Below are positions 23,404 through 28,325 of a DNA stretch of 64,000 nucleotides, in pieces. Each line of letters starts with the position of its first letter. The first letter of the stretch is position 1. The notes beneath the pieces are model-generated. The model was given only the letters and a program-made list of their open reading frames with translations. It did no database searches and was not told the DNA's origin. Both the position numbers and the translations under genes were made by a program. The stretch comes from a bacterium (lineage in GTDB: Bacteria > Zhuqueibacterota > Zhuqueibacteria > Residuimicrobiales > Krinioviventaceae): NCBI GenBank assembly GCA_963693055.1, contig OY843751.1, forward strand, positions 2,240,001-2,304,000, written 5' to 3'.

Positions 23404-24852
23404 ATGTGGACACTGAAATTTGAGTTGAATATGAAAGCTGGTTTAAAATATAAATTATATATACATATATTTTTTGGGGTTTTAATCATGCTGTGTATTC
23501 CACAGGATGGTTGTACGGAGACAATTCAAACCATTTATATTTCACAACAAGACGGAACGGATATTGATAATATTGGTAATGACAAAAACAAACCCATTCG
23601 TACATTGGCAAGGGCCAGAATTATTGCATTATCGAATTGGAGAAATGTGGATGGTTTTGAGATACTTTTTAAGGGGGGCGAACAATTTGACGAGTTTATA
23701 CCCATTACAAATCAGGTTCTAAAAGATTATGATCCATTACGCAATTCGTTTGCATTTGTCTGGGATATTGACAGGTCTTTGAAAATTTCTACTTTTGGAT
23801 CTCAAGAAAAAGCCATCATGTATTCAGACAAATATACGCATGAAGGAGGCCCGCAGACAGCAATAGCTGTTACAACTCCCAGTAGCCGGAATGTTATTGT
23901 TGAAAATATTCATTTCAAACATTGGCAGGTTTGCGCTTTTTTTGCGTACAAGACCCGTAACATTCAATTTTTGAACAATATTGTTGAAGAAATTGGAACC
24001 CTTTATTTCCCTGATGAAAAAACACCGGGGATTTATGGAGCGGGTGCCATATATCCCAAAAACTCTTCCAATGTATTCATTAAAGGAAACTATATTCTCA
24101 ATATTCATAATCAGTTTGATATGCTCGACAAGATGCATGTTTTTTATTTAACCCGGTTGAACAATTCTGAGATATGTGATAATATTATAATAAACGCAAG
24201 CGGACCACCGTTAAAGTTTCGTCGTTCTCAGACCAATAATGTTTATGTGCATGATAATGAATTTTACTATACCGGACCCTCACAATCCTTAAATCAGGTT
24301 CAGGAAGGCTGGGTGAGGTATAGCGGAGATGCTGATGATGGCTGCCCCTATGCAATAGTCATAGAACACAATTTGTTTTATTATCCATATTGTTGGGAAG
24401 GCACGCAAGCTTGTGATAATGCTTTGGCTGTAAAATACAGTATAAGCAATACAAGCGTTTGTGGTACGGAGGCTTGCGAGGATGATGAAAAGGTAAAGTG
24501 GATTGATAACGACTATCGTTATGAATGGGAATCCTATACTGTACCAGATATACCTACCCGTGTTGAAAATACAATAGCCAGTGATGTCGGAACATTTGAA
24601 TTGTTTGAAAACTATCCCAATCCATTTAATCCGGTAACAGAGATTTGTTTCCGAATACCAACCCGTAATCAAACCCGGTTAAACATATACAATGAATTAG
24701 GTGAAATTGTACGTAATCTTGTTGACAAAAGTTTAGAACCCGGATATCATCATTTCACTTTTAATGCCAGTGAATTACCATCCGGAATTTATTTTTACAG
24801 ACTTGAAAGTGGAGAATTGAACAAAACAAACAAGATGGTACTGATAAAATAA
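23404..24852 (+). CDS. right-handed beta-helix (pectin-lyase-like) protein with T9SS-type sorting domain
   Basis: Asn-ladder repeats 'NVIVENIHF', 'NIQFLNNIV', 'NVFIKGNYI', 'NVYVHDNEF'; CTD 'ENYPNPFNP...KMVLIK'. Confidence 0.75.
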   Translation: MWTLKFELNMKAGLKYKLYIHIFFGVLIMLCIPQDGCTETIQTIYISQQDGTDIDNIGNDKNKPIRTLARARIIALSNWRNVDGFEILFKGGEQFDEFIPITNQVLKDYDPLRNSFAFVWDIDRSLKISTFGSQEKAIMYSDKYTHEGGPQTAIAVTTPSSRNVIVENIHFKHWQVCAFFAYKTRNIQFLNNIVEEIGTLYFPDEKTPGIYGAGAIYPKNSSNVFIKGNYILNIHNQFDMLDKMHVFYLTRLNNSEICDNIIINASGPPLKFRRSQTNNVYVHDNEFYYTGPSQSLNQVQEGWVRYSGDADDGCPYAIVIEHNLFYYPYCWEGTQACDNALAVKYSISNTSVCGTEACEDDEKVKWIDNDYRYEWESYTVPDIPTRVENTIASDVGTFELFENYPNPFNPVTEICFRIPTRNQTRLNIYNELGEIVRNLVDKSLEPGYHHFTFNASELPSGIYFYRLESGELNKTNKMVLIK

Positions 24853-24872
24853 GGAAAATTTTCCGGTAGGTT

Positions 24873-24901
24873 TTGGAAAAAAGGCGGTTATTTCATATAG
24901 T
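24873..24901 (+). promoter_or_regulatory. sigma70-like promoter at the left end of the element
   Basis: TTGGAA-17 nt-TATAGT directly inside the left TIR, upstream of ATG 24958. Confidence 0.45.
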
Positions 24902-24957
24902 ATTTACTAGAAGTAACCGGAAGTCAAACAAAGATTTTAAAACTTACCGGAGGACAA

Positions 24958-25785
24958 ATGTACAATACTCGTAGTAGTTTGTATGACAGGATATTAGAAA
25001 AAACACCCGAGCAAGTATTCATCAATTCTTTACGAAAAGAATTTGAATTATCACCGGCAGAAAGTAAAGGGATATTGGATTTAGCCAAGCAGTGTTTATT
25101 TGGCGAGGTTCCCCAGACAGTTGGTAAAATAAAATATATCTGCGCATCCACCAAGGCAAAACATGGCAAGCCCCTGGGTGAGCAGGAATTGAAAGAAGTA
25201 GAGTTAACACTGGATGCCGGTGTAGAAGATTTAAATGTATTAAAAGAAAGCGGTCCCAAGGCACTGCGCCAGTTAAAGGTCTTACGATTGACCGAAGAAG
25301 CCTGGGATCAGGAAGGTTCTTTGACACAAGAGGATTTGGCCCGGATCCTCCAGGTTACGAGTCGCACTGTACGCCAGGATATAAAGTCTTTGCAGACTGA
25401 TGGCAACTTTATTCACACGCGCGGAACAGACCATGACATCGGTCGGAGCTTGTCACACAAAAGCCACATTATTGAACTGTATTTGCAGGGAGACACATAC
25501 GATGCAATTATTCGTAAAAGTCGTCATAGCGCGTTTTCAATAAAACGATATGTGTGCAGCTTTGGCAGGCTGTTGTTATTACTGAATCATGGTATGCAGG
25601 ATATCAAAGAGATCAGTCGGTTATTAGGCCAAAGTGAGCGTTTGACCCGTGAGTACCTGGATATTTTTGAGCATCATAAACAGGGTGACAAATGGCCGCC
25701 GATCTATGTAGAGTTATTGGAGCAATTAAAGGTGTTATACCCCTCGAAAAAAAAACAAACCAAGGAGGGGACCGATGAAGACTAA
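24958..25785 (+). CDS. DUF1670-domain protein A
   Basis: 'EAWDQEGSLTQEDLARILQVTSRTVRQDI...TRGTDHDIGRSLSHK...IIELYLQG...RHSAFSIKRY' matches the DUF1670 pattern as recalled; GGAGGA RBS. Confidence 0.85.
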   Translation: MYNTRSSLYDRILEKTPEQVFINSLRKEFELSPAESKGILDLAKQCLFGEVPQTVGKIKYICASTKAKHGKPLGEQELKEVELTLDAGVEDLNVLKESGPKALRQLKVLRLTEEAWDQEGSLTQEDLARILQVTSRTVRQDIKSLQTDGNFIHTRGTDHDIGRSLSHKSHIIELYLQGDTYDAIIRKSRHSAFSIKRYVCSFGRLLLLLNHGMQDIKEISRLLGQSERLTREYLDIFEHHKQGDKWPPIYVELLEQLKVLYPSKKKQTKEGTDED

Positions 25786-26590
25786 GCCTTTAAATCGTTA
25801 TGAATCAATAGCTAAGCGTAGCTTTCAAAATGCGATTATTCGATTACTGGAAGAAAATTATAAAATGCTGGGAAGCCACAAAGTCATCCGGATGATTGCA
25901 GAAGATATTGTCGCATTGCAAAATGAATTTTATCCAGAGCTGGAAAAGAAAAGTTTTGGTCAGATTATCTGGCGGACAACCAAAGCGACAAACCGAAAGC
26001 CAAGCTATGGCACAAAAGCGGAAGATTATGAGGTTCAGACAGTTGTGCTACCGTTGGTAACAGATGCGGATATTGACAATCGTATCAAAAGCCATTATTC
26101 TTATCCCCCAAAAGATGGCAGTGCTAATTATGAAAAACAAACAGAACGGGATATTAAAGTAATGGCGCGGTTATGCAAGAGTGCGGCAGAACAGGGCGGC
26201 TGGTTGACAGGTGCAGAACTCAGTGTATTGTTGAATCGCTCATTAAACACTATTGGTCGGTATATGACAATTTATCATGAAACGCATGATGATATATTGC
26301 CGACTAAAGGAATGATGCTGGATCAGGGCAGTAAGCCGACGCATAAAGCCGCAATTATAGATTTGTACGAGCAGGGATATCCCGAACCGGATATCGCCCG
26401 GATTACAAATCACACAATTGAATCAACGAGTCGGTATTTAAAGAGTTACAAGAACGTAAAATCATTATTGGAAAAAGGTTTTAATTTAATGGAAATGGTA
26501 AGAATAACCGGATTAGGACGGAGTACAATATTACAATACCGTGATCTGGTTTATCATTATCATTCAGATTTAATACAAAAGAAAACTTGA
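25775..26590 (+). CDS. DUF1670-domain protein B (paralog of A)
   Basis: 'AAEQGGWLTGAELSVLLNRS...PTKGMMLDQGSKPTHK..IIDLYEQG...NHTIESTSRY'; AAGGAGGGG RBS; overlaps the end of A. Confidence 0.85.
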   Translation: MKTKPLNRYESIAKRSFQNAIIRLLEENYKMLGSHKVIRMIAEDIVALQNEFYPELEKKSFGQIIWRTTKATNRKPSYGTKAEDYEVQTVVLPLVTDADIDNRIKSHYSYPPKDGSANYEKQTERDIKVMARLCKSAAEQGGWLTGAELSVLLNRSLNTIGRYMTIYHETHDDILPTKGMMLDQGSKPTHKAAIIDLYEQGYPEPDIARITNHTIESTSRYLKSYKNVKSLLEKGFNLMEMVRITGLGRSTILQYRDLVYHYHSDLIQKKT

Positions 26591-26614
26591 AAATTTGAAA
26601 AGGAATTAATAGGT

Positions 26615-26711
26615 TAGGTTGTCATTGTTTTTCAGCTAACTCCAGTCGCCCTACGAGCTCCTTTCGTTAGCTGAAAAAATGAATAAATGTTCTAATCTTA
26701 AAAACAACCTA
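26615..26711 (+). other. structured non-coding segment at the element's right end
   Basis: 13-bp perfect stem TTTTTCAGCTAAC (26628-40)/GTTAGCTGAAAAA (26666-78), enclosed by TAGGTTGT (26615-22)/ACAACCTA (26704-11). Confidence 0.6.
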
Positions 26712-26759
26712 CCGGAAATATTTCCTAAACGTAAGTAGGAAAACTATTAATTAAAGGAT

Positions 26760-28325
26760 ATGGATATGTTTTGGTTAAAAAAAATATTTAAAACTTTTTT
26801 ATGTCTTATTATAATCTCTACAGTTTTACCTGCGGCAGAGGTTAATTTCAATGTGTTGGATTATGGTGCAGTGCCTGATGGAAAAACATTGTGCACAACC
26901 GAGATTCAAAAAACCATTGATGCCTGTAATGAAGCCGGGGGAGGTTATGTTGTTTTTCCAAAAGGTGAGTTTTTAACCGGTACAATTGAGCTAAAAAATA
27001 ATGTATTTATGCAAATCCATCCTGCTGCAACATTGTTGGGTAGTAAGAACATTGCTGATTATGATCCCGGTTTTTTGATATATGCTGAAGGAATTTCTCA
27101 TGCGGGGATACTTGGTAATGGTACGATTAATGGACAAGGAGATTCTTTCTGGAAAGGCAAAGAACGTCCATTTAACAGACCCGGACGAACTATAAAGTTT
27201 TTAGATTGCAGGGATATTGTTTTTAAAGATTTTCATTTGATCAATTCTGCAAGCTGGTGTATTGATGTTGAAGGTTGCGATCGAGTCACTTTAACAGGGC
27301 TTTCAATTATTAATGATCGTGATGCTCCCAATACAGATGGTATTGATCCTGTTTCTTCATCAAATGTGTTTATTTCAGATTGCTATATTGATACAGGTGA
27401 TGACTGTATCTGCCCCAAATCCAATGATATTAACAAACCCTGTGAAAATCTGGTTGTTACGAATTGTGTGCTCATTAGTGATGATTCCGCAATAAAATGT
27501 GGAACCCGATCTAATGGAGCAATACGAAATTGCACATTTAGTAATATTGTCATTCGTAATGCCAAATACGGCATTGGATTTTATATGAAAGATGGTGGCA
27601 GCTATGAGGATATCCAGTTTTCTAATATATCTATTGAAACAATCATCCCTGCTGATTTGGAAAATTCAAAATGTACAAACAGTTTTGCAATTTTTATGGA
27701 TATTGAGAGCAGAGATGAACAAACCCCATTAGGTACAATTCGTAATATCATGTTTAATGATATTAACATACTTTCCTATGATGGGAATTGTCTGTTTGCC
27801 GGCATGCCGGAACAGAATATTAAAGATTTAACCTTGAGCAATGTACGGATGAAAGTGTTGAGACGCACTGATTTGACAAAAAGGAGAAAACCCAGAGGTA
27901 CCCGCACCTTGAAAAATATTGCTGTTAATGATCGTGCAGGAATTCAATCGTATTTTACTTTTGTAAACATTGATGGATTAACTATAAATAATCTGTTTAT
28001 TGATGACGAATCTGTTACAAATACTGTTAAAAGTTATTTCCTCTGGGGACAAAATATCAAGAATGTTACACTTGAAGGATTTCAAAATCGTCAGTCAGTT
28101 AGCAATGAAAATTTTCCATTGGTTCTATTTGAAAACATTTCGAATCTTTTTGTTAGTCGCTGTCAACCGGTTTCGGCAACAACACCATTTTTATCACTCC
28201 AGGATGCTCAATCTTCCGATATAACTTTGTTGAATAATAATTTTTCAAGAGTTTGTAAACCCGTTTCAGTGGGGCCGAACGTTGATTCAAAACAGGTTTA
28301 TATGGATAATAATCGATTGCAATAA
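26760..28325 (+). CDS. GH28 glycoside hydrolase (polygalacturonase-like)
   Basis: 'FNVLDYGAVPDG', 'APNTDGID', 'TGDDCICPKS'. Confidence 0.9.
   Translation: MDMFWLKKIFKTFLCLIIISTVLPAAEVNFNVLDYGAVPDGKTLCTTEIQKTIDACNEAGGGYVVFPKGEFLTGTIELKNNVFMQIHPAATLLGSKNIADYDPGFLIYAEGISHAGILGNGTINGQGDSFWKGKERPFNRPGRTIKFLDCRDIVFKDFHLINSASWCIDVEGCDRVTLTGLSIINDRDAPNTDGIDPVSSSNVFISDCYIDTGDDCICPKSNDINKPCENLVVTNCVLISDDSAIKCGTRSNGAIRNCTFSNIVIRNAKYGIGFYMKDGGSYEDIQFSNISIETIIPADLENSKCTNSFAIFMDIESRDEQTPLGTIRNIMFNDINILSYDGNCLFAGMPEQNIKDLTLSNVRMKVLRRTDLTKRRKPRGTRTLKNIAVNDRAGIQSYFTFVNIDGLTINNLFIDDESVTNTVKSYFLWGQNIKNVTLEGFQNRQSVSNENFPLVLFENISNLFVSRCQPVSATTPFLSLQDAQSSDITLLNNNFSRVCKPVSVGPNVDSKQVYMDNNRLQ

Follow-up and report, generated by a model that had tools for sequence, protein, structure and literature searches.

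Why a pair of overlapping genes stands alone between two inverted arms, directly behind the stop codon of a beta-helix gene, is the question raised by one locus in the 64,000-nucleotide (nt) window analyzed here (positions 2,240,001 to 2,304,000 of contig OY843751.1, assembly GCA_963693055.1). A preliminary description of this DNA proposed that the pair, A and B, which belongs to the Pfam domain of unknown function DUF1670 (PF07900), forms an insertion sequence (IS) of a new type. We find that the unit is, beyond reasonable doubt, a real mobile element, and that it is recently active. We also lean slightly towards the reading that A and B together are the element's own recombinase and that strands are exchanged at a 2-nt core.

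Mobility is seen both in the copies of the unit and in the sites that lack it, as the preliminary description had anticipated. The complete 6.5-Mb genome carries seven full copies in different flanks, six at 99.7–100% and one at 92.6% identity, and the former six show 0–5 differences from one another. In a sister species of the same genus (G085), the orthologous site is empty for six of the seven copies, the seventh having no orthologous flank, and for G085's own copy this genome offers no orthologous flank. A second family of DUF1670 pairs (~33% identity), found by tblastn, has six identical 1850-nt copies, all outside the window (approximate spans on G000:C1: 56384-58235, 509734-511583, 1346330-1348179, 2354413-2356262, 3997444-3999293 and 6088448-6090297), and two empty sites were seen for it. 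The two families together thus amount to 13 full copies. In family 2, the genes are inverted relative to the short and long ends, the long spacer has 8 nt and a TAG stop is rebuilt. A and B are the sole cargo, and in comparison with the 92.6% copy synonymous changes exceed non-synonymous ones (29:10 and 46:16 codons). A discrete unit, multiple copies in unrelated flanks and empty sites, the general marks of an insertion sequence, were all found; the pair is not fixed at one locus. The features of the element and its surroundings are as follows.

24849..26732, + strand: whole element, 1884 nt, the exact span common to the seven copies; the orthologous site in G085 is empty
24847..24848, + strand: left core AA, 2 nt, bases 1 and 2 of the final Lys codon in the host gene; Logan unitig start
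24849..24852, + strand: left spacer, 4 nt, giving the host gene its third Lys-codon base and a new TAA stop
24853..24872, + strand: left sub-terminal inverted repeat, its first 12 nt a palindromic box and putative A/B binding site
24873..24901, + strand: sigma70-like candidate promoter (-35, 17 nt, -10) facing the open reading frames (ORFs), consensus match 9/12
24958..25785, + strand: ORF A, DUF1670, 275 aa, conserved R110, R155, D160, H167, K168, H190, R197 and Y198
25747..25755, + strand: A9 run, predicted slippage site for an A-B fusion; runs of six or more A are enriched across pairs
25775..26590, + strand: ORF B, DUF1670, 271 aa, conserved R132, D183, H190, K191, H213, R220 and Y221
26628..26678, no strand assigned: hairpin of the non-coding 3' region; several relatives lack it, and Rfam gave no match
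26706..26725, + strand: right sub-terminal inverted repeat, its last 12 nt (26714-26725) a palindromic box
26726..26732, + strand: right spacer, 7 nt, identical in 7/7 copies, holding the TAA at 26726-28
26733..26734, + strand: right core AA, followed by the target's original G-TAG; Logan unitig end
23404..24852, + strand: target gene, encoding a beta-helix protein that ends in a Por/type IX secretion domain, its protein end unaltered by the insertion
26760..28325, + strand: downstream host gene, GH28, contiguous with the target gene in G085

The ends differ from those proposed at first, namely terminal inverted repeats bounding a unit of 1873 bp (24853-26725) between duplicated TAA triplets. 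Both triplets are present (24850-52 and 26726-28), and the left one is indeed the stop of the beta-helix gene, with GH28 next. However, all seven copies share four more bases on the left and seven more on the right. The assembly unitigs of the repeat in Logan, whose runs may be the source sample, run from core to core (24847 to 26734). The G085 empty site lacks the seven right-end bases that the predicted empty site had kept and reads Lys(AAG)-TAG; the filled left junction reads AAA TAA, and the right junction retains G-TAG. Taken together, unitigs, copies and empty site indicate that only AA is repeated, that the new stop comes from the element and that the right-hand TAA is internal. The inverted arms, found at 24852-24872 and 26706-26726 (21 nt, 90% complementary), are thus sub-terminal and asymmetric around the 2-nt core, their 12-bp palindromic boxes lying 4 nt (left) and 7 nt (right) inside the cores. 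Since each arm starts with a box, the two ends once joined would give the order box, 7 nt, core, 4 nt, box. A TAA duplication and a 5-nt AAATA core were both rejected: the left and right junctions here do not have the same third base, and AA is followed by variable right flanks in Bacillota relatives and in one family-2 copy.

Several smaller elements of the layout were also observed. Hexamers resembling the candidate promoter were recognized by eye in relatives. Two short ACCGGA repeats in the 5' leader (window 24910-24923 and 24943-24953) resemble the inner part of the arms and are kept in relatives; they are possible autoregulatory or accessory sites. A small hairpin module (window 26636-26670) recurs in the 3' region of the distant relatives L016, L017, L119 and L146 and formed a deep separate contig in metagenome runs; it is perhaps an independent repeat.

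We then asked where the element inserts. All seven copies sit in the last Lys codon of genes encoding a type IX secretion tail ("tail genes") and provide a new stop. Of the six family-2 copies, five lie at a tail-gene end (in opposite gene orientation), and one of these is stacked on a family-1 copy; the sixth lies at an unrelated AA. Among the 240 tail domains ending at a stop, 11 have the family-1 left end (7 whole elements, 4 remnants), and tail genes make up 152 of the 703 ORFs ending in Lys-stop and 152 of the 23,135 such hexamers. The remnants are orphan left ends at tail-gene stops (G000:C1 1730447, 3844075, 5684749 and 5975648), and at G000:C1 333449 a truncated tail gene has an orphan right end fused into it, the two meeting at an ACCGGA-like stretch that they share. 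The preliminary description had suggested that stop codons are targeted and host genes left intact. Host genes do stay intact; the target, on the other hand, is not the stop codon as such. In this genome it is the 3' end of a single gene class, and other lineages use AT-rich sites (Bacillota) or hairpin loops with a CT core (L015, L018).

The signal common to the insertions is an A-tract with T at every third base, and an upstream CCGG or TTT showed no enrichment over other tail genes. A 12.7-bit matrix built from 27 flanks of other genomes placed 15 of the 17 flanks here within the top 465 of 44,777 sites; by our reading, the two missed are the stacked and the off-target family-2 copies. Tail-gene ends account for only 134 of the matrix's top 500 sites, so that selection or finer recognition must add to the motif. 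The core was AA in 17/17 insertions and remnants here, though an AA- codon is the last one in just 161 of 245 tail genes.

PF07900 is present in 33 of 167 genomes of this phylum and in 9 of 65 genomes of an archaeal order; close relatives are labelled KSB1. A motif scan of species genomes gave at least 118 loci in many bacterial phyla and in methanogens, with 113 of the 118 listed loci confirmed by profile. As had been expected of other DUF1670 pairs, the same kind of ends was found there: an automatic finder placed box pairs around 21 of 40 pair loci, compared with 2 of 2000 shuffles, and the archaeal elements have the same layout of box, 7 nt, core, 4 nt, box, with a mismatched core in G199. 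At 17 of the 21 box-pair loci, the dinucleotides of the two sides were identical in the 4/7 or 7/4 register; among the remaining four, L146 and L002 agree when the correct end is taken, L010 is mismatched and L004 is neither a clear match nor a clear mismatch. Note that the evidence for the 4/7 register comes from copies and empty sites rather than from this 21-locus table.

The cores observed were AA, CG, AG, TA, AT and CT, and even near relatives differ (AA, CG, AG). In G126, the core was CG at 3/3 right ends, though only 7 of 20 motif matches there are CG. A core that is constant within a genome beyond what the targets supply favors a core carried by the donor. Elements of different DUF1670 families were stacked at one site at L040:1146-4880 and at L016 (after the right end), which is explained if each insertion leaves a usable core. 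In L119 and L146, a third, internal box directly follows the stop of gene B. Arrangements with three or four DUF1670 domains also occur (L076, L086, L090, L102, L109, L129; P0136, P0141, P0144, P0156); some have a degenerate first domain, and no box pair was found for them. Viral contigs, plasmids and phages gave no match in a weak search with one pattern or one archaeal query each.

Both proteins were confirmed as PF07900 (E-values 6.6e-47 for A and 4.9e-48 for B; 160 and 164 bits against a curated cut-off of 25), and the overlapping ORFs encode paralogs, 31% identical over 139 aa, as first described. When 57 pairs from bacteria and archaea were compared, they separated into an A clade and a B clade. 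D160, H167 and Y198 (A numbering) are invariant in all 114 proteins; R110, Q118, K168 and H190 are near-invariant, with R110, K168 and H190 each present in 55 or more of the 57 A proteins and of the 57 B proteins. The conserved motif is H-K...H-x7-Y, and K168 to Y198 spans 30 residues. Confident models (predicted local distance difference test, pLDDT, 83 for A and 81 for B) predict a small N-terminal helical/beta-hairpin part, a winged helix and two more helix-turn-helix (HTH) units.

The claim that no known transposase is detectable in A or B stood up to profile, motif and fold searches. Pfam gave no PF00589 and no resolvase catalytic-domain match on A or B, Pfam and NCBIfam gave no DEDD RuvC-like (IS110) match on A or B and no DDE family match on any of the window's proteins, and an archaeal B matched NF033545 with its HTH part only (15 bits against a cut-off of 100). 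The HUH (H-hydrophobic-H) motif of IS200/IS605 and IS91 occurs anywhere in only 2/57 A and 10/57 B proteins and is not conserved, and the N-terminal serine-recombinase motif was found in 0/114. PDB sequence, ESM Atlas, NCBIfam and PHROGs searches returned HTH-level matches only. One structural candidate, the winged helix of topoisomerase VI-A (Z 6.6, root-mean-square deviation 2.3, 62 aligned), was rejected because ordinary regulators scored equally well and the matching segment of B has no conserved Tyr.

A and B may also be made as one chain. In 43 of 57 pairs, a run of A6 to A9 is found no more than 75 nt from A's stop, against 20 of 512 background windows, and at this run B's frame is open in 42 of the 43 and the third frame in 20. 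Natural two- and three-domain DUF1670 fusions exist, and the longer forms showed only DUF1670 and HTH domains in a partly weak search. Given the enriched run, the open frame and the natural fusions, an AB fusion through slippage is likely as judged from sequence, though conserved Lys-Lys codons and the ORF overlap could explain part of the signal.

These features can be arranged into a mechanism. A and B, or the slippage-made AB fusion, would bind each 12-bp box as a pseudo-symmetric pair, and the ends would be joined into a circle in the order given above (box, 7 nt, core, 4 nt, box). The unequal spacers of 7 and 4 nt are consistent with a heterodimer. The protein would then read its target as a degenerate DNA motif (A-tract, T every third base and core), which type IX-tail gene ends fit. 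The H-K...H-x7-Y module, together with R and D, would form a phosphotyrosine intermediate, and the circle would be inserted by strand exchange at the two-base core common to element and target. The steps carry different weights. It is quite probable that DUF1670 is the catalytic enzyme, and recombination at a core is fairly probable as against a staggered cut with fill-in, while the tyrosine has an even chance of being the nucleophile. On balance, and by a small degree, we favor DUF1670 as a new class of DNA breaking-and-joining enzyme. It would be a heterodimer, or a single chain made by slippage, built entirely of HTH modules, with His-Lys/His/Tyr as its active site and a fold unrelated to DDE, DEDD, HUH, serine or tyrosine recombinases. 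The insertion sequences that it drives in bacteria and archaea would be compact and site-selective and would enter at a 2-nt core that can be swapped. In the present genome, it would read secretion-signal DNA so that the host protein is unchanged.

Possible traces of end joining were found at some sites. Right-end matches numbered 44, and 20 regions were examined. Nine of these, from eight genomes, are 23-nt single-box scars at tail-gene ends (L260, L268-L272, L275, L276, L279), one with unmatched cores; they were probably left by deletion between two palindromic boxes. In addition, a 48-nt mini-element on three metagenome contigs (L254:2494-2545, also L256 and L257) holds an exact right end-AA-left end junction, inverted. 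It lies between two convergent tail genes, with no DUF1670 within 2.5 kb, and its junction is an indirect trace of end-to-end joining.

Several results weigh against strand exchange by A and B at a core. No free circle or tandem junction was seen in the genome, and eight runs gave no joined-end junction, as examined in contigs, which drop rare forms. Seven metagenome matches to the junction pattern were not beside a DUF1670 gene, three being the one mini-element and four lacking the right-end box. Cores are unmatched in L010 and G199, 19 of 40 loci gave no box pair, and other cells of the register table score as high (e.g., 11/21), probably via fixed element bases. Moreover, the copies do not represent independent events, and a crossover core of 2 nt cannot be told from a duplication of 2 nt in sequence. 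Constant cores might also come from a 2-bp duplication whose preferred dinucleotide differs by lineage. As for the proteins, Foldseek of the A and B models gave no match at E ≤ 0.001, and the best VIA matches (Z 6.3 and 6.6) were HTH or winged HTH only; among the fold matches listed there was no tyrosine-recombinase catalytic domain. With hhalign, the probability was under 1% against 23 tyrosine recombinases; B's best local alignment placed H-K...H...Y on H-x-x-R-H...H...Y at this non-significant level. The conserved residues are located on HTH modules, where they might serve to contact DNA.

Other explanations were weighed against the same evidence. A and B might be a new nuclease-type transposase, perhaps binding metal through D160, H167 and H190, whose 2-nt staggered cut and fill-in give a 2-bp duplication. 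The identical dinucleotide at both ends, the conservation of D, H and H as strong as that of Y, and the missing circle all suit it. However, the ends are asymmetric around the repeat and share no terminal bases, a dinucleotide fixed per genome but varying between near relatives is better explained by a donor-carried core, and no DDE or RNase H fold is among the listed fold matches; we regard this explanation as unlikely. It is still less probable that A and B merely bind or synapse DNA while host XerC/D, XerA or a topoisomerase cuts and joins it. Such a division of labor would account for HTH and winged HTH being the only folds detected, with no catalytic fold found, and the genome does encode six PF00589 proteins. 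It would need one host partner across both domains, though, given that end geometry and invariant polar residues are constant from this phylum to methanogens, and the element ends are presumably unlike dif.

Targeting by RNA from the non-coding end, as in IS110/IS1111, was considered as well, since the element has a hairpin in its 3' end, and asymmetric sub-terminal repeats with a dinucleotide core resemble IS1111 and IS621 (PMC11187229, PMC11208160). Yet L014, L020 and L262 hit tail genes without having the hairpin, the 3' non-coding region varies from about 60 to 280 nt among relatives (sometimes about 60-90 nt), the seven targets of one element agree only at every third base with no contiguous common run, and Rfam gave no match. 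A plain DNA matrix, moreover, ranks most insertion flanks high, as described above. No RNA run was listed among the sequencing runs that contain the element. A guide RNA is thus unlikely, and we give RNA-guided targeting very little probability. PF01548, which would mark an IS110 helper, matches nothing in the complete genome, element included. Finally, existing annotations name the proteins HTH regulators, which would suit an immobile regulator pair; this reading, or that of an assembly artifact, is practically excluded by the precise empty sites, the multiple copies and the contigs that break exactly at cores. Preference stays with A and B as the element's own recombinase.

The literature searched contained no mention of DUF1670, PF07900 or a matching element, although supplementary IS catalogs might list the family under another name; as far as checked, this insertion-sequence family is undescribed. 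New DNA-moving chemistries are rare, and if A and B are the enzyme, they would be a sixth kind of transposase or recombinase and would give a function to a Pfam domain of unknown function found in both prokaryotic domains. The system is compact, with two 270-aa proteins and about 24-nt ends, and is possibly useful for gene-end insertion. It also illustrates a harmless-parasite strategy, with about 240 paralogous gene ends as safe landing sites. Annotation of insertion sequences by transposase profiles overlooks DUF1670 elements despite the 13 full copies here.

We lastly compared the element with known systems. IS630 makes a 2-nt staggered cut with a 2-bp duplication at TA, and its terminal inverted repeats are flush with TA. 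IS630/Tc1-mariner elements are alike in the dinucleotide repeated at both ends and in HTH DNA-binding modules, but here no DDE domain was detected, the repeats lie 4 and 7 nt inside, and the core is AA and varies between lineages. IS607 has a serine recombinase, a dinucleotide core, no expected true duplication and TnpB; the DUF1670 element shares the dinucleotide core and the expected lack of a true duplication, whereas it lacks TnpB and the serine-recombinase motif and has inverted boxes. With IS3 and IS1 it shares two overlapping ORFs and a predicted fusion through slippage at an A-rich site, except that ORF B is a paralog of ORF A, not a DDE domain.

IS110/IS1111 and the RIT, Tn554, SE and GInt elements come closer. 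In IS1111, the sub-terminal inverted repeats are asymmetric, at 7 and 3 bp (PMC11187229, PMC11208160), comparable to 7 and 4 plus a 2-nt core here, and IS110/IS1111 share the short core and the site- and orientation-specific insertion. Unlike them, the DUF1670 element encodes a pair of paralogous HTH proteins in place of a single transposase, and it has no detected DEDD/RuvC domain, no long non-coding region that is conserved, and a degenerate target. RIT, Tn554, SE and GInt are likewise small and target-specific, and their two or three paralogous genes overlap (PMC3414803, PMC10214605). The R-to-Y distance quoted for tyrosine recombinases is 30 residues (PMC3414803), as for K168 to Y198 here. 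Thus a His...Tyr module about 30 residues past a basic residue is shared with this group, as are the two- and three-domain fusions; the differences are the lack of a PF00589 match, of the RHRY motif (H-K for H-x-x-R; H-x7-Y), of a fold match among those listed and of a 6-bp footprint. Although its proteins fail the defining protein test of each group, the DUF1670 element is most like IS1111 in end geometry and most like RIT, Tn554 and SE in gene layout.

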